Positions 7,186-39,322 of a DNA stretch of 64,000 nt are shown one piece after another (position 1 is the first letter of the stretch; each line of letters starts with the position of its first letter). This DNA comes from an uncultured Candidatus Saccharibacteria bacterium. GTDB taxonomy: Bacteria > Patescibacteriota > Minisyncoccia > Phycocordibacterales > UBA9973. Under the pieces are notes generated by a model. The model saw only the letters and a list, made by a program, of their open reading frames with translations. It searched no databases and was not told the origin of the DNA. The position numbers were made by a program, and so were the translations under genes. The stretch is taken from the NCBI GenBank assembly GCA_964426555.1, contig CAYRQJ010000004.1:19109-83108 (forward strand), written 5' to 3'.

Positions 7186-10100
7186 TTACAAGGCTTCCCC
7201 TGTTTCTTCGTCGATAATAATATCGTCAGATATTTCTCTAAATCCAGTACCAGCTGGTATAAGTCTTCCAACAATAACGTTTTCTTTTAGACCACGTAGA
7301 CGGTCAATTCCACCTTTTACAGCATTGTTAATCAAAACACGATTTGTATTTTGGAAAGATGCAGCTGAAAGCCAAGATTTTGCAGTAAGAGAAACTTCTG
7401 TAATTCCAAGAACTAATGAATCTGCTTTTGAAATTCTTAGGCCTTCGTATTCTAAGCGCATGTTTTCTTCGTCTAGTTCAATCTTTTCTACAATTTCTCC
7501 TGGAGACAATGTTGAATCTCCTGTTTCTTTTACACGCATACGAGAGAACATTTGACGGATGATAATTTCAATATGTTTATGGTCAATAGATGCACTTTGT
7601 AATTCGTAAACTTTTGTAATTTCACGAACAATATAATCTTGTGCCATTTTAGCGCCACCTGTTTTAAAGATTTCACCAATATCAGCTGAACCATCAGTAA
7701 GTAATTCCCCAGCAACAACTTTTTGCCCTGGTTTTACGATTGGGTTACGGCGATTTGGTAATACATATTCAATTGAACCATCTTTACTTGCTCCGCGTTC
7801 GTTTGAAAGAACAACTATAGTTTTTTCTGATCCAGTTTGACGAACTTCTAAAACTTCTCCGTCTACTTTACTTAGAATAGCTGGACTTTTTGGAATACGA
7901 CGTTCGAAGATTTCTTCAATACGAGGAAGACCTTGGGTAATATCAGTACCTGCTACACCTCCGGCGTGGAATGTACGCAGTGTTAACTGTGTTCCAGGTT
8001 CACCAATAGCTTGCGCTGCAATAATACCCACAGCCTGACCAAATGCAATCATTTCGTTTCGTCCAAGATCAGCTCCGTAACATAATTTACATACTCCAAA
8101 TCGTCCTTTACATCCAAGTGGTGTACGAACAACTACTTCGGTTACACCTTTGGCTACAATATCAATTGCAATATCTTTTGTTACAAGAGTATTCTTTTTA
8201 TATAATGAATTTCCACCTTTATCTTTAAGATCAATAGCTAATACACGTCCACGAATTTGGCGTAGTAATGGAATTTCTGTACCACCAATAGTTTCTGTTT
8301 TAAGAATTTTTGATTCTTTTGTTTTACAATCTTCTTCAGTAATGATTACGTCTTGTGACACATCAACTAAACGACGAGTCAAATAACCAGCTTTAGCAGT
8401 ATTCAATGCTGTATCGGCAGAACCTTTACGAGAACCGTGAGTAGTAATGAAATATTGAATTGGAGAAAGACCTTCGATGTAAGATGGGATAACTGGGTAG
8501 TCAATAATACGCCCTGTTGTGTTAACAATAAGACCTTTCATTCCACACATTTGAACCATTGACCCCATGTTTCCACGAGCTCCTGAAATGATTAAATCAT
8601 ATGTACTACTTTTTGGATCAAGTGTTGCAGGAATTGCTTTCTCAATTTCTTTTTTAGCTTTTTCCCAAATTTCAAGAACTTTACGATAACGTTCTTCGTC
8701 AGTCAAAAGACCATCTTCGTAGTGACCAATAACAATTAGTTCTTTAGCACGAGCTGCTTTTACGATAGCTTCTTTTTCTACAGGAACACGTACGTTATCA
8801 ATACCCCAAGTAGTTCCTGATTTTGTAGCATAACGGAAACCGAATGCTTTGATTTTATCTAAGAAACCAGCAGTAACATCAATACCGTAGTGGAAGATCA
8901 AATCATCAACTAATGCACTAACGCCTTTTTTACCCATTTCTTCGTTAATATATGGGAATGTTTCTGGCAAAATATTGTTAAACAAAATTCTTCCTACTGT
9001 TGTTTCAAAAACTTTACCTTCAAATTTTGCATATTTTTCTTTTGTAGTTGGTAAAACTTTTATTTTTGTACGGTAGTCAATATGTCCAAAATCAAGTGCT
9101 AAAATTGCTTGGTTTGGTGAAGAGAAAATCATACCTTGACCTTTTTCGTCTGGAACATCTTTTGTCATCCAGAAAGATCCCAATACCATGTCCATTTTTG
9201 GTTCTGTAATTGGTTCACCGTTTTGTGGTTTCAACAAGTTTTTGTTTGCAGCCATTAACATGCGAGCTTCGTCTTGTGAAGCTTCACTAAGCGGTAGATA
9301 TACTGCCATTTGGTCTCCATCAAAGTCCGCGTTGAACCCTGTACAAACCAATGGGTGTAGTTGAATAGCATTACCTTCGATCAAAACTGGCATAAATGCT
9401 TGAATACCTAAACGGTGCAATGTTGGAGCACGGTTTAGTAATACATATTTACCTTTGATTACATCTTCAAGAATTGCCCAAACTTCTGGGATTTGATCTT
9501 CAATTAATTTGTTTGCTCCACGAATATTGTAAGCTAATTCTGTTTCAATAAGTTTTGCAATAACAAATGGACGGAATAATTCCAGTGCCATATGTTTTGG
9601 AAGACCACATTGGTTTAAAGACAGATCTGGTCCAACAACAATTACACTACGTCCAGAATAGTCCACACGCTTACCAAGCAAGTTTGCACGGAAAAGACCT
9701 TGTTTAGATTTCAAGTTATCAGCTAAAGATTTTAAAGCTCTCTTTTGAGATTGACTCATAGCTTGAGCACCATCTTGTTTTGCCATTGAGTTATCAATCA
9801 ATGCATCAACTGCTTCTTGCAAGATTCTTTTTTCATTTCTTAGAATTACATCTGGAGCTGAAATTTCTATCAGCTTACGCAAGCGATTGTTACGGTTGAT
9901 AACACGTCGGTAAAGGTCGTTAATATCACTTGTAGCATGACGTCCACCATCCAGCGCCACCATAGGACGAAGAGCTGGTGGAATAACTGGAATAACAGAC
10001 AAGAACATCCATTCAGGACGAGAATGTGAATGAAGTAGTGAACGAATTAACGCCAATCTTTTTTCTGTTTTTTCACGATCAAGTGATTTTGATTTTTCAA

Positions 10101-18266: not shown

Positions 18267-21200
18267 CTATTTATTATTTTCTTTATACTGTCTAATTTTT
18301 TCATTTATTTCTGAAGTTTTTGCTGCAAAAATAGCTTGTTCTCTTGAGCTCATTTGTTCTTGATTAATTACCTTATCAGTAATTTGATTTAATCTTTCAT
18401 CTGTAACTACATTTTTATCAACAAAACTATTCCATTCTTCGTCTCCAACTTCAGCTAAGCCTTTATTTTTATAGTATTCTTCAATATTTTTAGTTTCTTT
18501 GTCAAAATCTTCTTTATCTTTTATAGTTTTAGCTAAATTCTCTTCAGATTCTCTATATCTGTCTTCTAAGTCTTGTGGTATTTTTTCATTTGGATTGTTT
18601 TGTTCAAAATCTTCAAATTCTTTAAACAATTCTCTTTCTTTTGAAGTTGCTAAATCAATTTCTTTGTCTAATTCTTCTTCTTTTTCTGCTTGACGATATC
18701 TGTCTTCTAAATCTTGTGGTATTTTTGTATTTGGATTTTTTGCAACAAAATCTTCAAATTCTTGAAAAATAGTTTCTCTTCTTTTTTTACTAGTTTCTTG
18801 TTTTGATTCACTAATTGAACCCACAATATTTCCAGACCTATTATCTACTGCTTTTACTTTACCATCAACGGCTGTAACATCTTTTACTGCAGTTTTTTTA
18901 ACTTTATCTTGTCCACTAGCTTTTTGTTCTCTACCTTTATCTTTTTTATTTTCAGCTTGCTCCATTGGTCTTCGTGGAACTATTGGAACTGGGATCGGTG
19001 GTTCTATTTCAGTTTCTCCTGGTAAATCAAAACGAATATGATTTATTTGGTTATTATTAACAATTGTATCAGTTACACTACCAGCATGATCGGTACCAAT
19101 ATGAGTAGCCAGCATTTGCATATGCTCAACTCCATTAGCATCAACACCATGCAAGTTGCCTATTTCAGCATAAGCACCTGTAAATACAGCATGACCATTT
19201 GATGCTTTTTCTATCATCATTTGGAAAGCTGCACTATCGTGTGGAATTACACCATTACCAAATTCATCTACAGGAATTTTAATTGGAAACATTTGACCAT
19301 CTTTTGTTACAGACAATAATAAAAACAAATTTTTGTTTTCCATTTGATCATGCGCAGCAACGGAAATATCGTCTCTCCATGAACCATCATTTAACATATG
19401 TTTTACATTAAATACAGCATCTCCATTTTCGTTAAAACCAGATCCACCTACTCCGCCCCATTGTGCTTTAAGCTCATTAAAGTCAGCACCCAAAAGATGT
19501 CCTGGGTTATTTGGGTCTTCATACATTGGTGTATCATTACCCATCCAGTCTCTACTAATATGAGTACCTAATTCTTGATGATCACGCATATATTCAGTAG
19601 CAGATTTTGTAACTGTTTCTGTAGTATTTTCACCAATAAATACAGCATCAGTATTTACATCTGCGGCTCTTAATGCTGCAAGAGATTCTGGGGTTAATTG
19701 GTTAGTAGCTGGGTCAATAGTAAGATCTTTTGCTACCACATCACTACCATGCATTAAATTATAAGATCCGTCTGGGTTTTCATGCAAATCAACTCCATCT
19801 GGTAAATGAGCATGGACACCACCAATTATTTCCTCATGACCAACACCCATTGGGATTCTTGGACCACCACCAAATAAAAATCTTCGAGCTGATTCCATTG
19901 CAGTAGCAGTATCACTAACGTGCATGTCATCGTTTGGTCCTGTGAAATGATTATGTATGCCTTTTACAGTTCCTTCAATCACACCATCTTCGTGAGTAAA
20001 TAAAGATGTAACTTCTTGAGTAGCAAAACTAAATATTGCTCCACCGACTACTCCTTTTACAAAAGCTTTTGCAACTCTTTTTGCTTTTATTTTTCTATAA
20101 ACTTTATCTTTTTCACCAATTTCTCCCTCTGTTAGATCATTTGAAAAAGTATCAACTAATGTTTTAAAATTAGCATCAAAATTAGCATGACGAGGACTGC
20201 TTGATTTACGAAGAGCTACTTTTAACATTGCGGCTTTTTCTAAAATAGCAGTACGGTCTGATTCAACTTTATCAAAACTTTCGTATGAGACTAAATCAAT
20301 TTTATTTTTTTCACCAAGTTGAATACGTGATTCAAAATCAACTAATTCGGCAACAATTTGATCCGCTTCGGCATCTGTTAAATCACCTCGTTCAAGTAAT
20401 GCTAATGAATTATCAAATGTAGATTTTATTTCTGTCGCATTTCTTGTTTCGTAAGCAGTTTTGTCCATTTCATTGCGACGTTCCATGTCGGCATCAAATT
20501 TTGTACCCTTTGCTTTTTCGCGCATATGTTGTGTACGTTCTCTTCTTGTACGAACAGATTCTTTTGAAGCTTCAAATGCTCCACCCACAACAAGACCTCC
20601 ACCAAATGCTAACCATTTAGCTGTATTTTTTGCTAGGCTTTTACTTAATGCTTTAATACCAAAATATGCTCCAGCAATAGCCCCAGTAGCTCCTATATTT
20701 ATTAATGCAGTACCTAATTTGGTTTTACCTGATGCTTCCATTATCTTATCAAAAGCAGTCTTTGAAGCTTCAGAATTTAAACTTTCTCGGGCTTTACCAA
20801 GAGTAAGCTGTACATCAAAATCCATATCTTGCAATGATTGGCCGTGGGCAATAGAATCTTTAACTTCTTTAGCGATATCAAACAAATTATCTGCATACAA
20901 ACTATTTTCTTGAGCATAAGCAGGATTATGCAAAAAAATTAATCTATCTTTTTCTGCTTTAAAAGCTTCTTCACTCATTGTATTTGAAGCAGCGTAAGAT
21001 TTGATTAATTCTTTTATTTGATTATTTACAGCAGTATTTCCTTCTCTTTTGGACTCATTTTCTTCTTCTCTTAATATTTCATCAGAAAATTCACTGGTGA
21101 AACGATCAACAATACCTTTCATTGCATTCTTATTATGTTCAGCATCAGCGTGGCCTTCTTCGCCATATTGTTTTTCGCCTTCGTAAAGATTGCCACTGTC

Positions 21201-21482
21201 TAAAATTTGCTGACGAACTTTTTCAACTTCTTTATTGCGATAATAGTCTTGAGCTAAATTATGTTTCCAAATACGTTTAAAAAATCGTTTAGTTCGACTA
21301 CCGGAAAGATCATCTTTTGATTCTGTCATGCGAGCATCAGCAATATCACGAGATTGTGCCGCAGCCAACTCGTCTATATTGATAATTCCAGCTTTAAAGA
21401 CTTTCTTTTCTATTTTTTTAGATGGATCATTATTTTCGTCTTTTTTATTATTGGGAACAGCATTCGGTATTATTTTGTCCAT
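18267..21482 (-). CDS. large hypothetical membrane protein (1071 aa) with glycine-zipper TM segments and tandem 45-aa acidic C-terminal repeats
   Basis: TM-like GATGAIAGAYFGIKAL / WLAFGGGLVVGGAFEA; two copies of F(Q/K)EFEDF..NPN.KIPQDLEDRYR; no catalytic motif recognised. Confidence 0.6.
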   Translation of the reverse strand: MDKIIPNAVPNNKKDENNDPSKKIEKKVFKAGIINIDELAAAQSRDIADARMTESKDDLSGSRTKRFFKRIWKHNLAQDYYRNKEVEKVRQQILDSGNLYEGEKQYGEEGHADAEHNKNAMKGIVDRFTSEFSDEILREEENESKREGNTAVNNQIKELIKSYAASNTMSEEAFKAEKDRLIFLHNPAYAQENSLYADNLFDIAKEVKDSIAHGQSLQDMDFDVQLTLGKARESLNSEASKTAFDKIMEASGKTKLGTALINIGATGAIAGAYFGIKALSKSLAKNTAKWLAFGGGLVVGGAFEASKESVRTRRERTQHMREKAKGTKFDADMERRNEMDKTAYETRNATEIKSTFDNSLALLERGDLTDAEADQIVAELVDFESRIQLGEKNKIDLVSYESFDKVESDRTAILEKAAMLKVALRKSSSPRHANFDANFKTLVDTFSNDLTEGEIGEKDKVYRKIKAKRVAKAFVKGVVGGAIFSFATQEVTSLFTHEDGVIEGTVKGIHNHFTGPNDDMHVSDTATAMESARRFLFGGGPRIPMGVGHEEIIGGVHAHLPDGVDLHENPDGSYNLMHGSDVVAKDLTIDPATNQLTPESLAALRAADVNTDAVFIGENTTETVTKSATEYMRDHQELGTHISRDWMGNDTPMYEDPNNPGHLLGADFNELKAQWGGVGGSGFNENGDAVFNVKHMLNDGSWRDDISVAAHDQMENKNLFLLLSVTKDGQMFPIKIPVDEFGNGVIPHDSAAFQMMIEKASNGHAVFTGAYAEIGNLHGVDANGVEHMQMLATHIGTDHAGSVTDTIVNNNQINHIRFDLPGETEIEPPIPVPIVPRRPMEQAENKKDKGREQKASGQDKVKKTAVKDVTAVDGKVKAVDNRSGNIVGSISESKQETSKKRRETIFQEFEDFVAKNPNTKIPQDLEDRYRQAEKEEELDKEIDLATSKERELFKEFEDFEQNNPNEKIPQDLEDRYRESEENLAKTIKDKEDFDKETKNIEEYYKNKGLAEVGDEEWNSFVDKNVVTDERLNQITDKVINQEQMSSREQAIFAAKTSEINEKIRQYKENNK

Positions 21483-21490
21483 AGGAGTAA

Positions 21491-21874
21491 TTAATTAAAA
21501 TATAAACTTTTAAATTCTTGCATTTCTCTTAGCATAAGTTCTTCTACATTTGGAATATGTGCCATTAGAAATTTATTTATTTCTTCTTCATTATCAGTAT
21601 CCAAAATTTTATCAAATGATGGTAATTGATCTTCAGATAAATGACTAACGATCATGGCATTTATGCGAGTTTCAAATCGATCAGAAAGATCAGATTTAAT
21701 TTGAGCAAGAACTTCGGGGTCTTTATTTTCGTAACCTTTTTCTTTAATAATAAGTTCTATAAAATCTTCTATATTTTTCATATCTAAATTATACAAATTA
21801 AAGGGCGAATATGTCAATAAATAACTAATAATACTTATAGTTACATTATATACTAAGACTTGACTTTTGTCCAT
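21491..21874 (-). CDS. small hypothetical acidic protein upstream of the 1071-aa gene (alternative start at 21781 gives 96 aa)
   Basis: ORF 127 aa; first 31 aa hydrophobic and possibly not translated; internal MKNIEDF start preceded by TATAAT-like sequence. Confidence 0.45.
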   Translation of the reverse strand: MDKSQVLVYNVTISIISYLLTYSPFNLYNLDMKNIEDFIELIIKEKGYENKDPEVLAQIKSDLSDRFETRINAMIVSHLSEDQLPSFDKILDTDNEEEINKFLMAHIPNVEELMLREMQEFKSLYFN

Positions 21875-22012
21875 TAGTATGCTATTATACTACTAATCCC
21901 CTATATGGGCAGTTCATTGAAAAATGACGGTTAAAAAATTTGTATTTTGTCGGGTTTGTGTTGAGTTTTACCATTCAGGTAGAAACAGCACAAATCAAAT
22001 AAAAAACAAAAC

Positions 22013-23065
22013 ATGTTTAACAGCAAAGGAGCCGCAACGGCACCACAAACAGAAGAAGCTCTATTAGAGCAGTTCTTGGTAAACGAGAACAACGTACAAA
22101 TGAACATTAAGTCTCTAGTACGCAAAATCGAGGAATTAAAGAATAAACTTGCTAAAATGAGCAAGGAGTTGTTTGGGACAGAAAACTTTACTGAAAAGAA
22201 AAGTTTTTGGCCTCATGTTCTTCTTTTTTTAATTCTTTTACTGGTTGCTGGAATTGAAATCCCAGTAAACGCGATGTCTTTCGAAATCTTTGACCGTAAT
22301 CCTGAGGAGACTCAGATTATGGCAATCGGTTTTGGTTTTTTAATCGCAGTTTTGGCTCACTTTACAGGATTTAGCCTGAAAAGAGCTTTTTCTGGAGAAA
22401 AGAATTTTTATTTCATATTTTTTGCCTGCATCATAATTGCTGGTTTTGCATTCTACACAACTGCATCATTTAGATTGCAGTATGCAGAAATTATGCATCG
22501 CAATGGGGTTTTAAAGTTTGGTCAGCAATTTTTCTTTGGCGTTGTAATGTACATCGTTGGAGCAATTGCAAGTTTTTTCCACACTAGTGGGGTAAAAAAC
22601 AGTAACCTTGAAAAGGTTTTCAAGGCCGAATTAAATAACCTAAGGTCTACAAAAATAGATCTAGCAAAAAATGTAGCAAAACGAGATCAATTGCGTAAGC
22701 AATATGCACTCGATAAAGCTGCAATTGAGCAAGCTAAAATTGATGAAATTAAACAAGAAAATGAAGAAAACAAAAAAATAGCCAAAAACGAAGCAGACCG
22801 GAATGAAAAATCTAAGAACACTGCAATCGAAATGAGAGCAGAGTTTGAAGAAATTTCAAAAAAGTTTGATATTGATTTAGGTAAAGCACAAGTAATGTTA
22901 AGTGATTCAACTTTTTCTAAGGCTCAAATGGAGGAATTTATTCCTTATATGGAGATAAAAGAAAGACTAGAATTATTATTAGCTGATGCTGCAAAAGTTT
23001 CTTCAAACGAAACCATGGGCAGGCTTGATGAAATGAACAATCAGTTTAACAATTTAAATGCTTAA
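22013..23065 (+). CDS. hypothetical membrane protein: N-terminal coiled coil, 4 TM helices, long C-terminal coiled coil
   Basis: 350 aa; hydrophobic helices at about aa 65-85, 100-120, 133-153, 170-190; K/E-rich heptad-like C-terminal 150 aa; overlaps next gene by 8 nt. Confidence 0.6.
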   Translation: MFNSKGAATAPQTEEALLEQFLVNENNVQMNIKSLVRKIEELKNKLAKMSKELFGTENFTEKKSFWPHVLLFLILLLVAGIEIPVNAMSFEIFDRNPEETQIMAIGFGFLIAVLAHFTGFSLKRAFSGEKNFYFIFFACIIIAGFAFYTTASFRLQYAEIMHRNGVLKFGQQFFFGVVMYIVGAIASFFHTSGVKNSNLEKVFKAELNNLRSTKIDLAKNVAKRDQLRKQYALDKAAIEQAKIDEIKQENEENKKIAKNEADRNEKSKNTAIEMRAEFEEISKKFDIDLGKAQVMLSDSTFSKAQMEEFIPYMEIKERLELLLADAAKVSSNETMGRLDEMNNQFNNLNA

Positions 23066-23762
23066 AAACATGAAAAATTTAAAATTGATTCTAGTTTCTG
23101 GCATTATTATTGCCTTGTTTTTTTCTTCTTGTTCTTCTACGGTTTCAGAAAAATCTACTCAAGATGTTTACATCTTGGTAGATAATACTGAAGCTAATCT
23201 CAATTCTCGTGAAGATCTGGTTACAACCAGTGAAATCGTGGAGATGGTAAAGTCAGGTGGCACTGTTACTTGGCAAAACATAAATGCTGTATCTTTGAAT
23301 TCACGAAAATCTATTGAGGTTACTCTTCCAGAGAACCCAACAAACTTCCAGAAAATGAATGTTCTGGAGCCGTTTGAAAAAGAAGTGAATGAGTTCAATA
23401 AAAAATTTCTGGGTCCTGTCACAAAGGGCACAGACAACAGCAGCATTTACAAGCCGGTATGCCAAGCTTTAACGACATTGTCTAAATCTTCCGCAAAAAA
23501 ACAAACCTTGATAATTGTTTCTGACATGATAGAAAATTCCCAGTTTGGGAATTTCTATAATCAAAAGCAAACTTTTGCTCAGGTAAAGAACCAGCTCGAC
23601 AGTAGTGGTTTTTCCTTTCCAAAAGATACTCGTATCAAAGTTATTATTTTGTATCATGCCGATAACCAAAAGCATGAAAAACAGCATGACAAAGCCATGA
23701 GGTTTTGGCAAAAGTTGTTTGAAGATGCAGACATTGAGTTTGAGGTGAGGGCTAATTTATAA
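23058..23762 (+). CDS. hypothetical lipoprotein/secreted protein
   Basis: Signal peptide with LFFSSC lipobox-like cysteine; 234 aa, no recognisable domain; translationally coupled to upstream gene. Confidence 0.55.
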   Translation: MLKNMKNLKLILVSGIIIALFFSSCSSTVSEKSTQDVYILVDNTEANLNSREDLVTTSEIVEMVKSGGTVTWQNINAVSLNSRKSIEVTLPENPTNFQKMNVLEPFEKEVNEFNKKFLGPVTKGTDNSSIYKPVCQALTTLSKSSAKKQTLIIVSDMIENSQFGNFYNQKQTFAQVKNQLDSSGFSFPKDTRIKVIILYHADNQKHEKQHDKAMRFWQKLFEDADIEFEVRANL

Positions 23763-23767
23763 AGGCC

Positions 23768-24271
23768 ATGGGAAGCGCAGAAAATGAAGCTGTAAAAAAG
23801 CTTGCTGCCCTTCTTCCACAACTAATCGATGTGAAAACTAAAATAGTACAAATTCAGGAAAAACTTTCCCAAATAAAATACTACAAAGAGTTCAAACAAA
23901 ACATCGATGCGCCGAGTGTACTTCCAATCCAAGAAGCCGAGGTTTTTGCAAGGTTTATAACTAATTTTCAAAAAACAATTCTTGATTTCAAGAAGTCGTT
24001 CAATGAGAACGATCTTTCAGAAGAATCAAGAGAAATCTTTCTAAGTATATTTTTATTAGTATGCAAAAAAGGTTTAGTTGTTGATGAAGATCAAATTGTT
24101 TACTTTGACAAAAGCCCCGGTCTTTGGAAAAAGAGTACGGTATATGTTCTGGGAAAATGGGACGATTTACCCTATAAAGCGAAAGCTGGGTATTCGTTAC
24201 AGGCTTATGGATACTTGTTAAGCTACAGTGAACTGGTAAGTCTTATAGACAAACTAGATTCGCTAATCTAA
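23768..24271 (+). CDS. hypothetical cytoplasmic protein (167 aa)
   Basis: No signal peptide, no known motif; starts 5 nt after upstream stop. Confidence 0.5.
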   Translation: MGSAENEAVKKLAALLPQLIDVKTKIVQIQEKLSQIKYYKEFKQNIDAPSVLPIQEAEVFARFITNFQKTILDFKKSFNENDLSEESREIFLSIFLLVCKKGLVVDEDQIVYFDKSPGLWKKSTVYVLGKWDDLPYKAKAGYSLQAYGYLLSYSELVSLIDKLDSLI

Positions 24272-24291
24272 CCGTCATTTAAAATTACAAG

Positions 24292-24322
24292 GCCCGTTCA
24301 AGAAATTGAACGGGTTTTTATT
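24292..24322 (+). terminator. rho-independent terminator
   Basis: CCCGTTCAAGAAATTGAACGGG hairpin followed by TTTTTATTTG. Confidence 0.7.
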
Positions 24323-24375
24323 TGATTTTTTGAATTTGTGTGATATTATATAAAAGAAAAAAATAAAATAAAACT

Positions 24376-25572
24376 ATGAAAATTAAAAATAAAATACTAA
24401 TCTGGATAATATTCATTATTCTTTCCTCATGTTCAAAGTTCCAAAAAGGTGGCGTCGATGAAACTGGCCTTGATATGGTTGAAGTTGAAGTTCCCTATTT
24501 TGGTAAACTATACACATTTGATTTTTATGGCAGAGAAATCACAATAAAAATTAATCCGTCTATAGTAGCTGATCTTGATTTGGAAAGTAACGACACTGCT
24601 CAAATTAGAGAGTTAGTTAAAAATCTAAAAGACAAAAATTTTGATAAAACAGTAAAAATGCTGATTGACCAAGCAAAAGAAATGGAGCTTGATGCTTTTG
24701 GCTATAGATTACTGTTAAAAAAGTTTGTTGAAGAAATTCTTGAAGACAAATCAAAAAACTTTGGAGAAGTCATAATGTGGTATGGGTTACGAACTAATGA
24801 CCTTGATGCGATACTTTCTAAAAAAGGTAAGCGGATTTTTTGCTATTCTTCTGGGTGGGGTTATTATTTTGTGAGAGATAAAACCGATGAAACAAATAGA
24901 GGAATGATGTCTTTAAATATAGAAAACACAGGGTACTGGAATGACAATAAGAATATTAATCCTGAAAACCAAGACCTACTTTTATCTTTTGATTTATTTC
25001 CAAAATCTAAACATTGCGATTTTATTTTTTCTAAAAAACTTCCTAAATTAGGCAAAAAGATTTTTTCTAAAAAAAGAAGCTTTGTTTATAAAGGAAGAGT
25101 TTATCAATTAAAAACATCATACAATAAATACTTTGTGCAATATTTAAACTCTCTCCCAATGAGAGGGCTTGGCAGAGAATATTTTAAAATTGAATTTAGT
25201 AAAGAAACTACGCAAAGTTTTGATTCTATACCTATGTGGATTAATGGCAAAACAAATGATGAAAAATTTAGCTTTTTACTAACTCTTGTGGATCAAGCTT
25301 TTCCTCATAGCGGTGGCGACAAAATTGAAAAATGGAATTATGTTGAACAAACCATGAAAGATGATTACGTCGACTGCGAAGACAGAGCAATTATGTTTTG
25401 CTATTTAGCAGAAAGATTTACAGATTCCAAAGCAGCCCTAGTCTTAAACGATGGTCACGCATGGGGTGCTGTACTAAACCAAAAATCATACAAATATACT
25501 ATGTGTGATCCGGGGTTAAAGTTGGGTCAAATGCTAGAACCAAATAAAAAATTCCGGATAATAGATCCTTAA
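24376..25572 (+). CDS. lipoprotein with C-terminal transglutaminase-like cysteine-protease core
   Basis: Signal plus ILSSC lipobox; C-terminal DCEDRAIMFCYLAERF...DGHAWGAV...MCDPG matches the Cys-His-Asp arrangement of transglutaminase-like superfamily. Confidence 0.6.
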   Translation: MKIKNKILIWIIFIILSSCSKFQKGGVDETGLDMVEVEVPYFGKLYTFDFYGREITIKINPSIVADLDLESNDTAQIRELVKNLKDKNFDKTVKMLIDQAKEMELDAFGYRLLLKKFVEEILEDKSKNFGEVIMWYGLRTNDLDAILSKKGKRIFCYSSGWGYYFVRDKTDETNRGMMSLNIENTGYWNDNKNINPENQDLLLSFDLFPKSKHCDFIFSKKLPKLGKKIFSKKRSFVYKGRVYQLKTSYNKYFVQYLNSLPMRGLGREYFKIEFSKETTQSFDSIPMWINGKTNDEKFSFLLTLVDQAFPHSGGDKIEKWNYVEQTMKDDYVDCEDRAIMFCYLAERFTDSKAALVLNDGHAWGAVLNQKSYKYTMCDPGLKLGQMLEPNKKFRIIDP

Positions 25573-25587
25573 TCCTAATTAACACAA

Positions 25588-25622
25588 ATGCCCTCCTGCA
25601 AAAATAGGAGGGCATTTTTATT
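25588..25622. terminator. bidirectional terminator hairpin GCCCTCCTGCAAAAATAGGAGGGC
   Basis: 8-bp GC-rich stem followed by TTTTTATTT, between convergent genes. Confidence 0.7.
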
Positions 25623-25640
25623 TGTATTTTTATATTATTA

Positions 25641-27935
25641 TTACTTCGCTACTTTTACAGCGTCGCCAAATTCTATGGAAAGTAATTTAGATACAGCGTC
25701 GGACCCCATGGTTACTCCGTATATTGTGCCAGCGCGGGACATTGTTTCCCGGTTATGAGTCACTACAAGAAGCTGTGTTGACGTTGAAAGTCGTTCTAAC
25801 ATGTCACCATAGCGCCTTGAATTGGCTTCGTCTAGCGCAGCGTCAGTCTCGTCCAATACAAGAAAAGGTGGTGGATTAACTTGAGACATTGCAAACAACA
25901 GTGCAATAGAAACCAAAGACCGTTCCCCACCGGAAAGCATGTTTAATTCTTTAACTTTTTTGTTTGGTAAATCTACATGTATGTCTACACCACGTTCAAA
26001 TTTTGGCAAAGTAGTTTCGCCTGCCTGCGCAGACAGGTCTTCATTTTCGAGACCTTCTTCTATTTCTTCTAAAGATAAAGTTTTTTCTTTTCGCATTTCA
26101 GCAACAAGAGAAAGAAATGCATTTCCCCCACCAAACATAGCTTTAAAGAAATTACTAAATTCACTATTTATTTTATCTATTCCGCGACTGAATTCTTTGC
26201 GAACAGTATCACGCAATTCCCCTATTAATCCCAACAGTGACTGCATACTTTGGTGTAAATCAGTTAGTTCTTTTGCTAAATATTCATCACGCTCTTTAGC
26301 ATTATCAAATTCTTTCGTTATTTCGTCACCACTGCCACCACCTAATTCTTCTAACTTCATACGTAGTCTTTCTAAACTGCGTCTTTCAGATTGTAGTATT
26401 TCTTTTGTAGCATTGTCTAATTTTTCTTCTGAATTTAGTGAATGAATTAAAAATGGTTCAAAGATTTTGTATTCTTCACGAAGAAGCATTATGTCCCCCA
26501 GAATTCTTTCCAGCTCATTTTCTCTATTTTGTTTTTCCGCGTTAAGACGAACACGCTCTACACGTTTTTTGTAATTTTCAGATTCAAAGCTACGCATTTT
26601 GGATTCTTCATCCAGTAAATTTGCGCGCTGTAAATGTTCGTCTTTTTCTAGAATACCAATAGAAGCAATGTTTTGTTCTATTTGGTTTTTTAGATCTTCT
26701 TGCATTGCTATAGCTGCTGACAATTCTTCACTATTATCAGTGTCTATATCTTCTCCTATATCTTTATGAATTCTATATTTATTTAAAAATTCTTTTACGC
26801 GGTGGCTAAGATTTTTTAGATTATCTATCCAAACATATTTTTCAGTATCAGGATTGCCTACTAAATTATCTATTTCATCAGCTAAATGGTCACAAAAAGA
26901 TGTAAATTCATCTTTACTAATATGCACAATTTCACTAGCTACTATTGGCTTTTTCTTTGGAGTTTGCAGTGCTTCAACAAGACCTTCGGTGCGACCAAGA
27001 CTGCGCTCTAAATTCTCACGAGTTCGAAGTAATGCAGATTTTTCAATTTGAATTTTCTCTATTGCTTCTTTTAATACAAATATTTGACTATTGTCATACA
27101 CTGCTTCATCTTCTATATTTCCAGAATCTGCACCGTGAGTTAGAATTTCATTTTCAATATTAAAAATTTCTTTTCTTATATCTTCTTCTTTTTTGTTTAA
27201 AATACCGTACGATGCATTTTCGTATTTGTAATATCTTATAGATAATTCTTTGCGAGCTTCTTCTGCTTCGCTAAGTTTTTGAACTTGTTTTTCTAAAAAT
27301 TTAAGATGTGGTAATAATTCCTTGCGTGCTGCTTCTACTTCGGAGATATTTATTTTTGCTTTTTCTAATTTTCTTTCAGCATCACGAATACGCAACTCAT
27401 ATACTCTTAGCCCTAATGCGTCGTCTATCATACTACGACGTTCACGTGGAGATGAAGATAGCAATCTGTCAGCTTCACCCTGAGAAATAATATGGTGCCC
27501 AGATGCTCCAATATGAACTGAAGCCAATAAATCAGTAACATCTTTTAGCCTTACTTCGGTTCCATTAACACTGTATATACTTTTACCATCAGCATACAAT
27601 TCACGAGCTACGGTTACATTATCAAAATCCAGTGAAATATTTTTTCCACCATCGTTAGCTAATGTTAGTAATCTTTTTTTATTATCAAAAGTTATTGCTA
27701 CGCGTAATTTGTTGGCAGCACCAAGACCTTTGGATCCCTTGAATAATAAATCAGTACTACCTTTACCACGAAGAGATTTCATAGACTGCTCTCCCAATAC
27801 AAAACGAATAGATTCTACAACGTTACTTTTACCTGAACCATTAGGCCCAACTACTGCTGTAATTGAAGAATCAATAGTAACAACTATTTTTTTACCAAAA
27901 GATTTAAAGCCAGTTATTTCTAAAGTCTTTAACAT
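25641..27935 (-). CDS. smc: chromosome segregation SMC protein, unusually short (764 aa)
   Basis: N-terminal head (GPNGSGKSNVVESIRFVLGEQS...QGEADRLL) and C-terminal head (LSGGERSLVSIALLFA...LVLDETDAALDEAN...VVTHNRETM) both canonical; intervening coiled coil/hinge only about 430 aa. Confidence 0.85.
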   Translation of the reverse strand: MLKTLEITGFKSFGKKIVVTIDSSITAVVGPNGSGKSNVVESIRFVLGEQSMKSLRGKGSTDLLFKGSKGLGAANKLRVAITFDNKKRLLTLANDGGKNISLDFDNVTVARELYADGKSIYSVNGTEVRLKDVTDLLASVHIGASGHHIISQGEADRLLSSSPRERRSMIDDALGLRVYELRIRDAERKLEKAKINISEVEAARKELLPHLKFLEKQVQKLSEAEEARKELSIRYYKYENASYGILNKKEEDIRKEIFNIENEILTHGADSGNIEDEAVYDNSQIFVLKEAIEKIQIEKSALLRTRENLERSLGRTEGLVEALQTPKKKPIVASEIVHISKDEFTSFCDHLADEIDNLVGNPDTEKYVWIDNLKNLSHRVKEFLNKYRIHKDIGEDIDTDNSEELSAAIAMQEDLKNQIEQNIASIGILEKDEHLQRANLLDEESKMRSFESENYKKRVERVRLNAEKQNRENELERILGDIMLLREEYKIFEPFLIHSLNSEEKLDNATKEILQSERRSLERLRMKLEELGGGSGDEITKEFDNAKERDEYLAKELTDLHQSMQSLLGLIGELRDTVRKEFSRGIDKINSEFSNFFKAMFGGGNAFLSLVAEMRKEKTLSLEEIEEGLENEDLSAQAGETTLPKFERGVDIHVDLPNKKVKELNMLSGGERSLVSIALLFAMSQVNPPPFLVLDETDAALDEANSRRYGDMLERLSTSTQLLVVTHNRETMSRAGTIYGVTMGSDAVSKLLSIEFGDAVKVAK

Positions 27936-28638: not shown

Positions 28639-29568
28639 TTATTTTTTTGTATTTTTTACTAAAATTTCTGTAGCTTTTCCAAGTAGTGGAATAATATTTT
28701 CGTATAGTGCTAAATTTGGAATACTGGATAATGGAAACCATTTTACATCATCAAGTCCACCTTCTTTTTGTAATTTAAGATCTTTAAATTCTGCACGTGC
28801 TAAGAAATAAACAGCTTGTTTACGAATTTTACCTTTTACTGGATGTGATGCAATGTATTCATTGCGACCAAGTTCGTCTTCTACAACTACTTCAATATTT
28901 AATTCTTCTTTAATTTCTCTTGCAGCCCCAACACGTTCGTCTTTAATGTCATCTATTCCGCCTTTACTTAAAGTCCAAAACCCAAAGATATCGTGCACTA
29001 ATGCAAAATAAATAGTGTCTTTTTCTATTGCATAAATTACAGCTCCGGCTTTTTTCTCTATGGGTAGCGTATCCGGGTCTACAACAACAGGTTCAGTTTT
29101 GGTATTTATTTTTCTTTTGCCATTTTTACCATTTTCATCTTTTCCGGGTTGACCCATTTCTTTATAAACTGCACCCAATACTCCATTTACGAATTTAGGT
29201 GACATATCAGCCCCAAACGCTTTTGCTAGTTCTATAGCTTCGTTAATGGCAACTTTTGGTGGAACATGCTCGTTGTCACCAAATATTAATTCGGCAAGTC
29301 CAATGCGTAAAATATTTCGGTCAATGATACCTATTTTTTCTATAGGCCATTCCGGAGCAGCTTTAACAATAACATCATCTAAAATAGATTTTTTACTAAT
29401 TATAAGTTTTGTAAGTTCACGAGCAAAAGCCGCATCAGGATGTCCTGGTGCAAATTCTGTAATATTTCTGTTTACAATAGCTGGAACTTCTTCCACAAGA
29501 AGATTCCTGAAATCCCATTCAAATAGGGACTGTAGTACGATAGAGCGAGATAAATGCCTGTTTGCCAT
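28639..29568 (-). CDS. nusB: NusB antitermination domain fused to a C-terminal Nudix-like hydrolase domain
   Basis: aa 1-140 NusB (IDRNILRIGLAELIF...VAINEAIELAKAFGADMSPKFVNGVLGAV); Lys/Gly linker; aa about 175-309 with REIKEELNIEV (REUxEE Nudix-box core). Confidence 0.7.
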   Translation of the reverse strand: MANRHLSRSIVLQSLFEWDFRNLLVEEVPAIVNRNITEFAPGHPDAAFARELTKLIISKKSILDDVIVKAAPEWPIEKIGIIDRNILRIGLAELIFGDNEHVPPKVAINEAIELAKAFGADMSPKFVNGVLGAVYKEMGQPGKDENGKNGKRKINTKTEPVVVDPDTLPIEKKAGAVIYAIEKDTIYFALVHDIFGFWTLSKGGIDDIKDERVGAAREIKEELNIEVVVEDELGRNEYIASHPVKGKIRKQAVYFLARAEFKDLKLQKEGGLDDVKWFPLSSIPNLALYENIIPLLGKATEILVKNTKK

Positions 29569-35389: not shown

Positions 35390-38300
35390 TTATATTACAG
35401 GCTCTGGGGCTGGTTCAGGATCTGGTGTTGGTGCTGGATCAGGGTCAGGTGTAGGAGCTGGATCGGGCGTTGGAGTTGAGTCTGGTGTTGGGTCTGGAGT
35501 AGGCGTTGGATCTGGTGTTGGAGATAGATCAGGTGTTGGATTTGATGCAGGAGATGGTGTTATTCCACTTTGATTTACCATTTGTAAGAATTGCTCTTCG
35601 TTAACACAGACACTGCCAACACACAATTCTTTTGTTTGAACTTTATCTGCATTTATTAATTTAGTAAAGATTACTTCTATATTATTCCCCACATCTGCCA
35701 AGAATATCTTTATCTTATTTGCTAAACTATTTTCTTTTGTTGTATCAAGTGAAGATAAATCTGTAACTTTTAAATTAAGTTCTTGAATAGCATTTAGTGC
35801 AATCATTTGTAATTCAAGATTATATGAAACTGCATAGTATCCATTTTTTTCTTTAACTAAATCAGGGAAAACTTGTGCCATTTCTTGAGCGATTAAACCA
35901 ACTTGTCTTCCTGATACATAACGTAGTGTTCCACCCAAGCTTTCTATGTCTTCATTCCATTCAAATGATACTGGGCGAAGTTGCATAACTTTTTCTAAAG
36001 ATCCAGTTAGTGAAGTAATATTATGTTTTAATCTTTCGTCAGATGTACATGTCCCAGCAACTTGAGCGCCGGCTTCTCGGAAACAGTCATCAGTATTAAT
36101 ATCGGCTACAACGTCTAGACCGTAGTCGGGAGTAGTATCTCCAATACCGACTTTACCATCACTAATAATTGTCATTCTATCAGTACCTGTTGTGGTTGTG
36201 GTATTAGCCGCAGTATAAAAAGTAATTGTGGTTACAGCGTTTGTAAGTGAACTACCACCACCAATACCAAAATTAGTTACGGCACTACTTGATGTGTAAT
36301 TAAACAATGCTACTGGCTCTTCGGCATTTGTATAATGAGGACCAACGATACGGGCATTTTTATCAGTAACGTTAGTTCTTGTATTTAAAGTATTGTCAGC
36401 ACCCAGCATCATAGTTATACCACCATTACTAATATCTAATGGATATGAAGGAGTTGCGGTAAGAATACCTAGACGATTATTTGTATCATCCCAGAAGAAG
36501 TTTGAATTGTCTTGAGAAATTAAACCGCCTGTCCCAGTAAAAGGAACTGAGCCTGATGTTAATGTAGAAAATGTAATATTCCCAGATGATGTTATGCCAG
36601 TAGCGGCTGCTATTGCACCACTGGAATTGACTTGAAATAAATCACCATCACCAACAGTAAACTTTGCTGCAGGAGACGCGTCCCCTATACCAATATTCCC
36701 AGTAGACAATGTTGTACCTGTACCATCTATTCCAGTACCAAATATTAAGTTACCAATAGTCATCGTATTTGTAGATGTAGCCGTTGGAGCATCAATGTCG
36801 TAGCCGATGACAATGTTATATGAACCAGTAGTAATATTATTACCAGCTTGGTAACCAAAAAGAGAGTTACCATCTGCACCAGTAGCAAATAATCTTGTGG
36901 TATTATGTCCAACCGCAGTATTTCCACTTACTGTTGTATCCGCAACTGTTGCAACCCATGCATGTCCACCTATAACCGTATTATATGAGCCGAGATAGTT
37001 AGCCGTAAGTGCGTAAGTACCCAATGCGATGTTATAAGTTCCAGTACTTGTATTATTCCCTGAAGAATAACCTAGGGATGCATTGTTAGTTCCAGTTGTA
37101 ACACCAGAAAGTGCATATTCCCCAACACCACTATTGTAGCTTCCGGTTGATAAATTAAACAACGATTGCTGACCAACAGCAGTATTGTCGCTTCCTGTAG
37201 TATTGTAATACATACTTGCTTTACCCAACGCAGTATTTGCTTTCCCTGTTGTATTTGCAGCCATAGTATCTGCACCAAATGCAACATTTGAATGACCTGT
37301 GGTTAATGCAGACATTGTATTTTTACCAACAGCACTATTATAGCTTCCTTCCCATACTAATGTAGCAGTTGAGCCTATGGTAAAGTTTCCGGAACTTTCT
37401 CCAACGAAAGTATTTCCCCCCGAAGTTGTCACTGCTCCATTATTCCCATAGTTAAAATCATGGATAAATCTATTTCCATCTTTATAAATAATTCCGTATT
37501 GTGCAGCAAAACTTGTTGCTGGCATTCGGAAGTTTTTTGTAATTTCAAGTTGTTCATTTGGTGTAGCTATACCTATACCAATGTTACCAGTAGACAACGT
37601 AGCATTGACCCCATCAATACCTGTTCCAAAAATAAGATTACCGATATTTAAAGTATTATCCTGAGTATAGTCTTGCGGTTCAATATCGTAGCCAATCATT
37701 ATGTTATGGTCTGCTGAAGACCAGCCAAGACCTGCGTTTTTACCAATAAATATATTGTTACTACCAGAGAAAGCCCCGCCTCCACCAGCAGATTGTCCTA
37801 AAATTGTATTGCCTGAACCAGAAGCATGAGAAGCAGCACTATCTCCAATACCTATATTGTCTGAACCGGTAGAATTACCAAGAGCGCCACTACCGATCGC
37901 AACACCGCTACCACCAGTGGCATCCTGAAGAGCTCCATATCCTATTGCAATAGCTCCGCTACCATCATAATTCTCTAATGCACCATGACCTATTGCGATA
38001 GAATAAGCTGCACCAGTTCCATTTTTTAACGCGTCAACACCTATTGCAACATTAGACTCACCATAATCATTGCTATATAAAGTACGATAACCAATAGCCA
38101 CATTATTATAACCCGAATCATTTACATTAAAAGCTTGATAACCAAAAATAGTATTTGTATTATCATTACTTGGTCCACGCCCAAGTCGTAAACCATTTAT
38201 TAATGCTTCTCCGTTTACATCTAATTTTGCTAATGGAGTCGCAGTACCAATACCAATACTTCCTGTTGAAACCGTTGTGCCTGTACCGTCGATTCCTGTA

Positions 38301-39322
38301 CCAAAAATAAGATTACCAATAGATAGTTGGTTATCACCACCAGCTGTTGGTAAATCAATATCGTAGCCAATAATAATATTATTGTCAGCACCAGTAGTTA
38401 AATTATTTGCGGCTTGGTAACCAATAAAAATATTATTTGCAAATACATCACCACCTTCATTTGCATTAGTACCAGCTCTGGCACCCAAAACAACATTATA
38501 TCCACCAGAAGTGTTACTATATAATCCTCTATTTCCAAAAATAGTATTATAACTACCGGTATTAAAAGGTGCAGAAGAACTACCAACCGCAGTATTGTAA
38601 CTACCGCTAATATTGTAAAGTAAAGACAAACTTCCAACACCAACATTGGCTTGTCCTGTTGTGTTGTTGTATAAAGCACCGTTACCAGCAACAGCTGTAT
38701 TATCTACTCCGGTTGTATTATTTTTTAAAGCGTTATATCCAATACCCGCATTTGAATATCCTGTGGTTACACTATTTAAAGCATTTTTACCAAATCCAGA
38801 ATTATAGCTTCCTTGCCAAGAACTAGTAGCCGTAGAACCCATTGTTAAATTACCAGCACTTTCACCAACAAAAGTACTTGACCCCTCAGTTGTCACTGTT
38901 CCATTGTTTCCATAAGTAAAATTATGAATGAACGTATTTGCCCCTTTGTAAATTATTCCGTATTGTGCAGCAAAACTTGTATCTGGTATTCGGAAGTTTT
39001 TTGTAATTTCTAATTGTTGATTTGGCGTATTCGTCCCTATACCTAATCTATTATTTGTATCATCCCAAAAGAAGTTTGTATTATCTTGTGTTAATGTAGA
39101 ACCATCAGAAAAAGCTATAGAGCCAGTTGTAAGAGTTGGTAGAATTGATACATAACAGTTAGCATCACCAGGTGCACAAGTAGGATCAAGCATAGCGTCA
39201 GATGGTATATATGGTAAACCAAAAGCTACTCCAGTACCAAAAATACTAAATATCACTGTGGCAATAATGAATTGTTTATTGTATTTAAGCCACTTTATCA
39301 TAACTATAATCTTGTCCCACAA
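35390..39322 (-). CDS. giant repetitive cell-surface fibre-like protein (1310 aa) with C-terminal intramolecular-chaperone (Peptidase_S74-like) domain and Pro/Thr-rich tail
   Basis: N-terminal signal-anchor identical to paralog; arrays of about 14-15 aa NTA[VI]G..[AS]L.[NS]N repeats (beta-helix/fibre-like); C-terminal TSDERLKHNI...LRPVSFEWNED...VGLIAQEMAQVFPDLV; ends TPTPDPTPD... Confidence 0.85.
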   Translation of the reverse strand: MWDKIIVMIKWLKYNKQFIIATVIFSIFGTGVAFGLPYIPSDAMLDPTCAPGDANCYVSILPTLTTGSIAFSDGSTLTQDNTNFFWDDTNNRLGIGTNTPNQQLEITKNFRIPDTSFAAQYGIIYKGANTFIHNFTYGNNGTVTTEGSSTFVGESAGNLTMGSTATSSWQGSYNSGFGKNALNSVTTGYSNAGIGYNALKNNTTGVDNTAVAGNGALYNNTTGQANVGVGSLSLLYNISGSYNTAVGSSSAPFNTGSYNTIFGNRGLYSNTSGGYNVVLGARAGTNANEGGDVFANNIFIGYQAANNLTTGADNNIIIGYDIDLPTAGGDNQLSIGNLIFGTGIDGTGTTVSTGSIGIGTATPLAKLDVNGEALINGLRLGRGPSNDNTNTIFGYQAFNVNDSGYNNVAIGYRTLYSNDYGESNVAIGVDALKNGTGAAYSIAIGHGALENYDGSGAIAIGYGALQDATGGSGVAIGSGALGNSTGSDNIGIGDSAASHASGSGNTILGQSAGGGGAFSGSNNIFIGKNAGLGWSSADHNIMIGYDIEPQDYTQDNTLNIGNLIFGTGIDGVNATLSTGNIGIGIATPNEQLEITKNFRMPATSFAAQYGIIYKDGNRFIHDFNYGNNGAVTTSGGNTFVGESSGNFTIGSTATLVWEGSYNSAVGKNTMSALTTGHSNVAFGADTMAANTTGKANTALGKASMYYNTTGSDNTAVGQQSLFNLSTGSYNSGVGEYALSGVTTGTNNASLGYSSGNNTSTGTYNIALGTYALTANYLGSYNTVIGGHAWVATVADTTVSGNTAVGHNTTRLFATGADGNSLFGYQAGNNITTGSYNIVIGYDIDAPTATSTNTMTIGNLIFGTGIDGTGTTLSTGNIGIGDASPAAKFTVGDGDLFQVNSSGAIAAATGITSSGNITFSTLTSGSVPFTGTGGLISQDNSNFFWDDTNNRLGILTATPSYPLDISNGGITMMLGADNTLNTRTNVTDKNARIVGPHYTNAEEPVALFNYTSSSAVTNFGIGGGSSLTNAVTTITFYTAANTTTTTGTDRMTIISDGKVGIGDTTPDYGLDVVADINTDDCFREAGAQVAGTCTSDERLKHNITSLTGSLEKVMQLRPVSFEWNEDIESLGGTLRYVSGRQVGLIAQEMAQVFPDLVKEKNGYYAVSYNLELQMIALNAIQELNLKVTDLSSLDTTKENSLANKIKIFLADVGNNIEVIFTKLINADKVQTKELCVGSVCVNEEQFLQMVNQSGITPSPASNPTPDLSPTPDPTPTPDPTPDSTPTPDPAPTPDPDPAPTPDPEPAPEPVI

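Follow-up and report, generated by a model that had tools for sequence, protein, structure and literature searches.

What is encoded by a short run of plus-strand genes that no family library recognises? The question is raised by a 64,000-nucleotide (nt) stretch of an uncultured Candidatus Saccharibacteria bacterium (contig CAYRQJ010000004.1, positions 19,109 to 83,108; the whole stretch is called the window below), in which four genes, here named g1 to g4, lie at 22013-25572. All four open reading frames (ORFs) were found on the plus strand where the initial annotation had put them. All have conserved homologues and are therefore real genes, and none has a significant match in Pfam, NCBIfam, PHROG or PADLOC. 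It was found that g1 and g2 form a fixed, near-obligate pair within one large unannotated family, that the transcription unit is a three-gene operon of g1, g2 and g3 (22013-24271), and that g4 is a separate, patchily distributed transcription unit, a neighbour outside the conserved cassette. Three things had escaped the initial annotation: the g1-g2 family of 1336 clusters, the natural fusions of the two genes, and the pair's membership of a transfer-module backbone outside the Candidate Phyla Radiation (CPR). Our tentative reading, the best placed of those weighed below and still short of probable, is that the pair is a two-protein envelope adaptor shared with DNA-transfer modules. The four genes are as follows.

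22013-23065, plus strand: g1, ORF of 350 amino acids (aa)
23058-23762, plus strand: g2, ORF of 234 aa; the probable start at 23070 gives 230 aa
23768-24271, plus strand: g3, ORF of 167 aa
24376-25572, plus strand: g4, ORF of 398 aa

Word-based searches returned 5 homologue clusters for g1, 19 for g2 and 10 for g3, the last all of CPR type, and an exhaustive HMMER profile search with g2 returned 1336 clusters, defined at 50% identity, at E≤1e-3 (554 at E≤1e-10). Homology between the CPR and non-CPR versions extends over the full length of g2 (hhalign probability 99.9%, E 9e-34) and over the transmembrane (TM) core of g1 (probability 99.3%, E 1.6e-20). Scans of the family libraries with 66 members of the g2 family and with the mobile-element versions described below were likewise without significant matches. 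In PADLOC-DB 2.0, the best E-values were 0.013-0.19 for the window proteins and at least 5e-4, from coiled-coil matches, for the relatives. The pair is undescribed in the literature searched, and it is unmentioned in PMC5704250 and PMC7431656.

The linkage of the two genes is strict. A g1-family ORF was found 5' of g2 in 48 of the 49 non-CPR loci with at least 400 nt of upstream sequence, and the junction in non-CPR loci is mostly a 4-nt ATGA overlap. The gene g1 also precedes g2 in loci L011-L013 and L021-L025 (with a 4-nt overlap in L024 and L025), while L026 and L028 hold g1-g2 fusions. Among the 150 top g2 matches there are 11 proteins of 500-755 aa in which the g2 domain stands at the C-terminus (P0055, P0057, P0059, P0060, P0067, P0074, P0081, P0094, P0140, P0148 and P0158). 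Seven of these natural fusions score with the CPR g1 profile and the remainder show a g1-type core in the alignment; their order is g1, an extra TM segment and g2, with the lipobox Cys invariant. From this architecture the C-terminus of g1 is placed in the cytoplasm, and it is a possibility that the fusion proteins are lipidated and cleaved into two chains. Given the gene linkage and the natural fusions, we infer that the products of g1 and g2 form a physical complex.

Some neighbours of these copies can be recorded here. A divergent gene for a CHAT-TPR (caspase-like) protein adjoins g1-g2 in the Acidobacteriota locus L023 (2953-6173), and a second CHAT-TPR protein is encoded less than 6 kb from the fusion gene of L026 (1-1134). 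In L028, a T4SS_pilin (PF18895) gene at 7356-7784 is about 3.9 kb from the fusion gene, and the neighbours are otherwise housekeeping genes.

The initial annotation had described g1 as a four-TM protein with coiled-coil arms, and our analysis agrees. Four hydrophobic segments (aa 69-87, 102-120, 132-150 and 173-191; nt 22217-22585) lie between a heptad-like N-terminal arm (aa 15-62) and a highly charged C-terminal arm of about 160 aa (aa 193-350), which contains 28 Lys or Arg, 30 Asp or Glu and one Pro. The g1 profile matched only canonical coiled coils in the PDB (ATP synthase b, ZapB, GCN4), and neither this search nor the Pfam scans gave similarity to a transporter or channel family. We conclude that g1 is a four-TM protein with both ends in the cytoplasm and with long helical, coiled-coil-like arms. 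Across 24 diverse g1 members, R154 (22472-22474), located after TM3, is invariant, and E82 (22256-22258), part of an E-x-P-x-N motif at TM1's outer end, is kept in at least 90% of them; polar conservation within the TM helices of the family is limited to E82 and, in part of the family, His116. Two smaller observations concern the CPR versions. Their N-terminal cytoplasmic motif G-A-A-T-A-P-x-T/S (aa 6-13; window 22028-22051) may be a phosphorylation site, an idea that comes from a kinase-bearing neighbour in L011. In L007 (6554-7616), g1 is broken into ORFs of 93 and 275 aa by an apparent frameshift, which is either an assembly error or a mark of a pseudogene.

Both g2 and g4 had been called lipoproteins, and the sequences bear this out. 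In g2, a signal sequence is followed by a lipobox that reads LFFSS before Cys21, with LASC, LSAC, LAAC and others in the orthologues, and Cys21 is at least 90% conserved, the g1-g2 fusions included. An AlphaFold2 (AF2) model of g2, built with a 19-sequence alignment, reached a predicted local distance difference test (pLDDT) value of 87.2 and a predicted TM-score (pTM) of 0.82. It consists of strand 31-38, helix 53-59, strands 64-71 and 80-84, helices 92-114 and 127-138, strand 144-150, helix 169-177, strand 189-194, helix 200-219 and strand 223-227, an alternating strand-helix order that fits a von Willebrand factor A (vWA) domain, a Rossmann-like alpha/beta fold with a helix-flanked central sheet. 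When the model was compared with the PDB by Foldseek, 32 matches were obtained at E≤1e-3. Every named one is a vWA domain or a protein that contains one, most with probability 0.9-1.0: integrin I-domains, TRAP, RGLG, ITIH1, CLCA1, anthrax-toxin receptors, the vWA of the PilB pilin, Rpn10, Ku, NorD and the Cav alpha2delta subunit (3jbr_F). Of these, CLCA1 and Cav alpha2delta are lipid-anchored or auxiliary subunits of channels. On this modelled fold, g2 is a predicted lipoprotein with an extracytoplasmic vWA-like domain.

The conserved residues of g2 fall in suggestive places of the model. The motif D38-N-T40-E (23181-23192) closes strand 1 and the motif S151-D152-M-I-E155 (23520-23534) closes strand 4; among the 66 g2 members, D38 is invariant while T40, S151, D152 and E155 are at least 90% conserved. 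The positions of D38 and S151-D152 are those where residues of the metal ion-dependent adhesion site (MIDAS) sit, and S124-S125 is also at a topologically matching place. The relatives mostly read D-x-T-[DE], often with Ser next, and two members read D-x-S-E-S. The model of g2 shares its strand-helix order with vWA and integrin I-domains (for example those of Cav alpha2delta, CLCA1 and the pilus-tip protein PilB of Streptococcus sanguinis), and the conserved Asp/Thr and Ser-Asp of g2 lie at the ends of strands 1 and 4. Like Cav alpha2delta, g2 is predicted to be lipid-anchored outside the membrane and is paired with a polytopic membrane protein.

Outside CPR, the surroundings of the pair were sampled by a metagenome scan. 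The broad g2 alignment was too diverse to serve as the query and the alignment of one non-CPR g2 subfamily was used, which yielded 68 loci and a biased neighbourhood sample. Neighbour clustering showed a fixed order in these loci: one or two ORFs (about 190 and 124 aa), g1, g2, and then proteins of about 480, 170, 280 and 330 aa. According to Pfam and NCBIfam, the protein of about 480 aa is a VirD4-like coupling protein of the CD1115 family, that is, a type IV coupling protein (T4CP), and in 55 of 58 loci of this subfamily it is the next gene after g2. The next three are a possible relaxosome accessory protein, a MobA/VirD2 (MobP) relaxase and ArdC, respectively. The relaxase was seen in 35 loci and ArdC in 9, a tyrosine or serine recombinase is nearby in others, and the flanks are housekeeping genes or defence-like cargo. 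Mating-channel genes are absent from the elements examined. With a MobP-type relaxase, ArdC and a recombinase usually beside the pair, the loci of this subfamily are, by their predicted gene content, integrative mobilizable elements, and the neighbouring gene families suggest Bacteroidota as the host. In L026, which is a differently organised element, the fusion gene is again beside a relaxase and a T4CP.

In 16 complete elements, the divergence of g1 and g2 is correlated with that of the T4CP and the relaxase (r 0.77-0.92), and the mean identities are 30% for g1 and 36% for g2 compared with 52% for the T4CP and 46% for the relaxase. We take this co-divergence to mean that g1 and g2 are backbone genes and not swapped cargo. 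The large unannotated family pair, with 1336 g2 clusters and a g1 partner for each sampled member, is, in the subfamily sampled, a backbone part of small integrative mobilizable elements. Such elements move resistance and defence genes, and the way in which they dock onto a helper mating channel is poorly understood. Their T4CPs have about 75 aa and at most one hydrophobic segment before the Walker A motif. In most systems that have been tested, namely TrwB, PcfC and MobB, the T4CP membrane domain is essential, although a TcpA mutant without it still transfers at a reduced frequency (PMC7431656).

Two further features of these elements were noticed. The one or two ORFs of about 190 aa (with an acidic tail) and 124 aa are always found 5' of g1 in 21 loci (for example L032, L034, L037, L040, L050, L063 and L074), and they have no Pfam, NCBIfam or PADLOC match. 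Also, two g1-g2-T4CP modules lie about 2.2 Mb apart on the 4.3-Mb contig WLWD01000010.1 (L094 and L095).

Within CPR, a near-identical locus (99%) is present in GCA_020049755.1, and related loci carry the names Candidatus Saccharibacteria or Patescibacteria. The genes g1, g2 and g3 (about 350, 230 and 170 aa) are found together in every related Saccharibacteria or Patescibacteria locus that reaches far enough downstream; the exceptions are the divergent L022, where g3 is absent, and L021, where the next ORF is cut by the contig end. A lack of co-conservation, which would have spoken against a module, was therefore not observed for g1-g3. The cassette spans at least three different CPR neighbourhoods. 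It is convergent with the SMC gene in the window, L001, L007, L008, L014, L015 and L018, and co-directional with and downstream of SMC in L003-6, L013 and L016; it stands beside a DUF5663 gene and a gene for a 1737-aa kinase-bearing protein in L011, and beside SecDF/LemA/M48 in L012. The SMC adjacency was considered as a functional link and rejected: it reflects ordinary synteny and is missing from L011 and L012. In Saccharibacteria the cassette is stably chromosomal, occupies a syntenic position and has neither a T4CP nor a relaxase next to it.

The third gene of the cassette has no hydrophobic segment, in line with its earlier description as a small cytoplasmic protein. Its AF2 model is a helical bundle with a small beta hairpin (pLDDT 90.9, pTM 0.85). 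Sequence and profile searches against the PDB gave no matches, and hhalign comparisons of g3 with the T4CP, the accessory gene and c4 of the mobile elements, and with g1, showed no relation. We conclude that g3 is a CPR-specific cytoplasmic protein without a structural or sequence relative. Directly 3' of g2 in CPR, it occupies the slot that the T4CP holds in the mobile elements. For g1-g3, our analysis confirmed the statement of the initial annotation that they belong to no recognisable catalytic family and lack ATPase and nuclease signatures.

How the three genes of the cassette are separated from g4 can be seen from the signals of the region, listed below together with the left neighbours and the equivalent terminators of two related loci.

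18267-21482, minus strand: gene for an unannotated 1071-aa protein, left neighbour, paired with the DUF5663 gene
21491-21781/21874, minus strand: DUF5663 gene, left neighbour of the cassette
21782..22012: divergent intergenic region with promoter-like sites on both strands
21817 to 21788, minus strand: DUF5663 promoter-like site, TTGACA-18-TATAAT, perfect sigma-70 consensus
21860-21888, plus strand: g1 promoter-like site, TTGACT-17-TATTAT, flagged as TG-extended, about 125 nt 5' of g1
24289-24318, with a T-run to 24328, plus strand: hairpin 3' of g3, like an intrinsic terminator
24322..24349, plus strand: g4 promoter-like site, TTGATT-16-TATTAT, flagged as TG-extended
25586..25617, both strands: terminator-like hairpin between g4 and the convergent SMC gene, with a weak minus-strand T-run
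L007, 8849-8878: terminator 3' of g3, equivalent to that of the window
L014, 5604-5633: terminator 3' of g3, equivalent to that of the window

Both terminators of the initial annotation were thus recovered as hairpins, and the divergent promoter region that it proposed was found to contain a promoter-like site on the plus strand. Terminator-like sites number 15 in the region, compared with 3.5 ± 2.1 in shuffled sequences. Over 22-26 kb, both the GC skew and the AT skew change sign, which is expected for a switch of the coding strand. Whether g1 and g2 overlap by the reported 8 nt turns on the choice of start codon: the orthologues align from the ATG at 23070, which leaves a 4-nt gap. The two genes are tightly packed under either start.

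The proposed four-gene operon did not survive. In the window, L007 and L014 alike, a terminator and then a strong promoter-like site lie between g3 and g4, despite differing sequences, and for this reason we regard g4 as a separate transcription unit. The equivalents in L007 and L014 are stronger than the site of the window, that of L007 being TTGACT-16-TATAAT. Homologues of g4 occur in only three related loci (L007, L008 and L014); the gene is absent in L001 and L002, an unrelated 237-aa gene stands in its place in L003-6, and unrelated genes replace it elsewhere. The protein has a signal sequence followed by the lipobox residues ILSS and Cys, and we call it a predicted lipoprotein. As to its supposed transglutaminase-like domain, neither the full protein nor its C-terminal 98 or 198 aa had a match in Pfam at E≤10, and sequence and profile searches against the PDB returned only noise (an RNase E S1 domain, onconase). 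What speaks for the assignment is that C334 (in D-C-E-D-R), H361 and D378 (in C-D-P-G) are invariant, in a comparison of three homologues only.

How might the pair act as an adaptor? In the mechanism that we propose, the vWA-like head of g2 would grip an extracytoplasmic partner through a MIDAS-like pocket of the Asp/Thr and Ser-Asp residues, with E82 of g1, a component of a secretion or mating channel, and a surface ligand as candidates for this partner. The cytoplasmic coiled-coil arms of g1 would recruit a soluble partner, namely the T4CP in mobile elements and g3 in Saccharibacteria. As a polytopic protein encoded in the mobile elements beside a T4CP with almost no membrane domain, g1 can be likened to DotM, the membrane partner of DotL, and to the N-terminal TM domain of TrwB/VirD4; it differs from them in that it has no sequence similarity to them and combines four TM segments with coiled coils and a vWA partner. 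In Saccharibacteria, the module would have been co-opted from conjugation, an origin already proposed for their type IV secretion system (T4SS). The T4SS of Patescibacteria is argued to have been derived or co-opted from monoderm conjugation machinery, and the genes for most T4CP homologues of these bacteria are reported to lie apart from virB4 (PMC12102498). Our data set no direction of transfer between mobile elements and CPR. Beyond the T4SS, the cassette is a candidate second case in which machinery of conjugative origin has become fixed in the reduced genomes of the episymbiotic Saccharibacteria, and this one comes with the orphan-fold partner g3. A more far-reaching version, which we consider doubtful, is that g1-g2 are an unrecognised and widespread class of adaptors that supply membrane docking in trans to T4CPs poor in membrane domains, and that Saccharibacteria co-opted the pair, with g3 replacing the ATPase, in order to couple surface contact (with the host cell or with their own conjugation-derived secretion system) to a cytoplasmic response.

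Several results weigh against the adaptor reading. The vWA assignment of g2 is at the level of a modelled fold only: the TM-scores against vWA structures are low (0.3-0.5), the Pfam VWA families are unmatched by g2 (E≤1) and by the 66 family members (E≤0.01), a profile search against the PDB gave no match at E≤10, and hhalign against the integrin alphaM I-domain, with an approximate sequence of that domain, gave a probability of 0.4%. The g2 of the window reads D-N-T-E-A and many relatives read D-x-T-x-S, in contrast to the D-x-S-x-S of the MIDAS. Acidic ligands complete MIDAS sites and alpha2delta binds Cav channels, and by this analogy E82 is suggested to contact the MIDAS-like site of g2, a step that is pure inference. 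The neighbourhood sample was selected by a motif ([IL][VI]YSDLME), so that the figure of 55 out of 58 describes that subfamily and not all of the 1336 clusters, and the T4CP gene usually starts only 150-200 nt after g2, a distance at which co-transcription is not a given. The pair is also found without transfer genes in Acidobacteriota (L023), Nitrospirota (L024) and another genome (L025). A T4CP, a relaxase and a T4SS gene are absent from the 64-kb window and from beside every CPR cassette, and a recombinase is likewise absent from the flanks examined near the window cassette and the CPR cassettes; the link of the CPR copies to transfer is therefore by homology only. On this point the window copy, at its syntenic chromosomal position, differs from the modules of mobilizable elements with their own T4CP and MobP relaxase, in which its non-CPR homologues are housed. 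Finally, the model of g3 has no significant Foldseek match, with best E-values of 0.9 in the PDB and 0.35 among the viral structures of BFVD.

The main rival to the adaptor is entry or surface exclusion, in which g1 and g2, made by the cell that carries them, would block DNA transfer or mating that comes in from related elements. In Saccharibacteria, the copy would serve as a domesticated barrier to invading DNA or to type IV secretion. TraT/TraS and YddJ are exclusion factors, and the pair resembles these, TrbK and Eex in being a lipoprotein with an inner-membrane protein in a transfer region. Proteins of this kind are, as a rule, membrane lipoproteins or small proteins of the inner membrane that are encoded in transfer regions, such as TrbK of RP4, and they can be part of the mobilization modules of such elements (PMC5704250). 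The faster evolution of g1 and g2 relative to the T4CP and relaxase fits surface or specificity proteins, and the stand-alone chromosomal copies (L023-L025 and CPR) fit a protective role. We nevertheless consider exclusion unlikely. Such proteins are usually small and belong to one element family, whereas the pair is much larger (about 590 aa), spans phyla, is fused in several lineages and has no homology to them, no exclusion family of Pfam or NCBIfam being matched. Exclusion also gives no obvious role to the long cytoplasmic coiled-coil arms or to the CPR-specific g3, and the elements encode no mating channel to exclude. The remaining readings are weaker. If the pair were an anti-phage or abortive-infection effector carried as a defence gene, g2 would sense an envelope event and g1 would act as a pore or by coiled-coil signalling, loosely like the ZorA tail. 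The elements do carry defence-like cargo (a ResIII helicase and AAA_21/AAA_23 ATPases), the CHAT-TPR proteins lie beside or near the pair in L023 and L026, single members gave weak matches to SLATT_5, PycTM and the ZorA coiled coil, and Zorya ZorA/ZorB likewise combine a membrane protein with a long cytoplasmic coiled-coil tail and an externally exposed partner. On the other hand, the pair has no MotA/ExbB domain and no MotB-like partner, its only PADLOC signal for Zorya is coiled-coil noise in one fusion protein (E 1.3e-3), and no member has a significant PADLOC match. It lacks a nuclease, NTPase or other effector domain, and it sits at a fixed backbone position 5' of the T4CP and co-diverges with the backbone, unlike variable cargo. 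A scan of 2.9 M viral contigs brought up no relative, and when a single non-CPR g2 (P0073) was compared by tblastn with 72,556 plasmids, nothing matched. We regard defence as very unlikely.

Another reading is a channel for ions or solutes in which a lipid-anchored vWA protein would be the auxiliary subunit, comparable to Cav alpha1-alpha2delta or TMEM16A-CLCA1 and without a part in DNA transfer. The four TM segments of g1, with a Glu and an Arg conserved on the outer side, the Foldseek matches of g2 to alpha2delta (3jbr_F) and to the vWA domain of CLCA1, and the existence of stand-alone chromosomal copies are compatible with a channel. However, g1 is not similar to transporter or channel families, its conserved polar TM residues are few (E82 and partly His116, with R154 just after TM3), and a channel leaves the status of the pair as core genes of mobilizable elements of about 10 kb unexplained; we rate this no higher than defence and, if anything, lower. 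The last reading, and in our view the least credible, is that of the initial annotation, a four-gene operon for envelope remodelling or host interaction with a transglutaminase-like g4 as the catalytic member. In the window, L007, L008 and L014, g4 adjoins the cassette in the same orientation, and its product is a predicted lipoprotein with invariant Cys, His and Asp; yet the terminator and promoter-like site split g3 from g4 in all three lineages that have g4, most cassette-bearing genomes lack or replace the gene, and no transglutaminase profile is matched. The idea of a functional module itself holds for g1-g2-g3, which are co-conserved envelope-located proteins, and fails for g4. A role in envelope remodelling or host interaction is possible and received no specific support here.

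The flanks of the cassette were described as housekeeping genes by the initial annotation. This is right for the right side (SMC, RNase III, NusB-NUDIX) and wrong for the left, where the DUF5663 gene and the gene for the unannotated 1071-aa protein are located. The DUF5663 promoter-like site ends 6 nt before the ATG used by relatives (MKNIEDF, 96 aa), which suggests a leaderless mRNA, and the ORF call of 127 aa is probably too long. In relatives the protein is annotated at 96-109 aa, leaving a gap of about 231 nt, as in the window. A DUF5663 gene and a protein of about 1000-1700 aa without a Pfam family adjoin the cassette in 10 CPR loci (window, L001, L007, L008, L010, L011, L014, L015, L018 and L022). 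They are usually divergent from the cassette, and in L022 they lie downstream on the same strand. The N-terminal 850 aa or so of the large protein are conserved, and the L011 homologue is fused to a Ser/Thr kinase domain. These two genes may form an extended association with the cassette.

On the right, the SMC homologue (25641-27935, minus strand) has 764 aa compared with the 1181 positions of TIGR02168 and scores 468 bits against a cutoff of 567; those of the related loci are similarly short (748-766 aa). The NusB-NUDIX fusion of 309 aa (28639-29568, minus strand) is conserved in all related loci. Further along the window, two giant minus-strand ORFs at 35390-39322 and 39432-45215 (1310 and 1927 aa) each end in a C-terminal Peptidase_S74 (endosialidase-chaperone) domain, and they look like self-cleaving, tailspike-like surface fibres.

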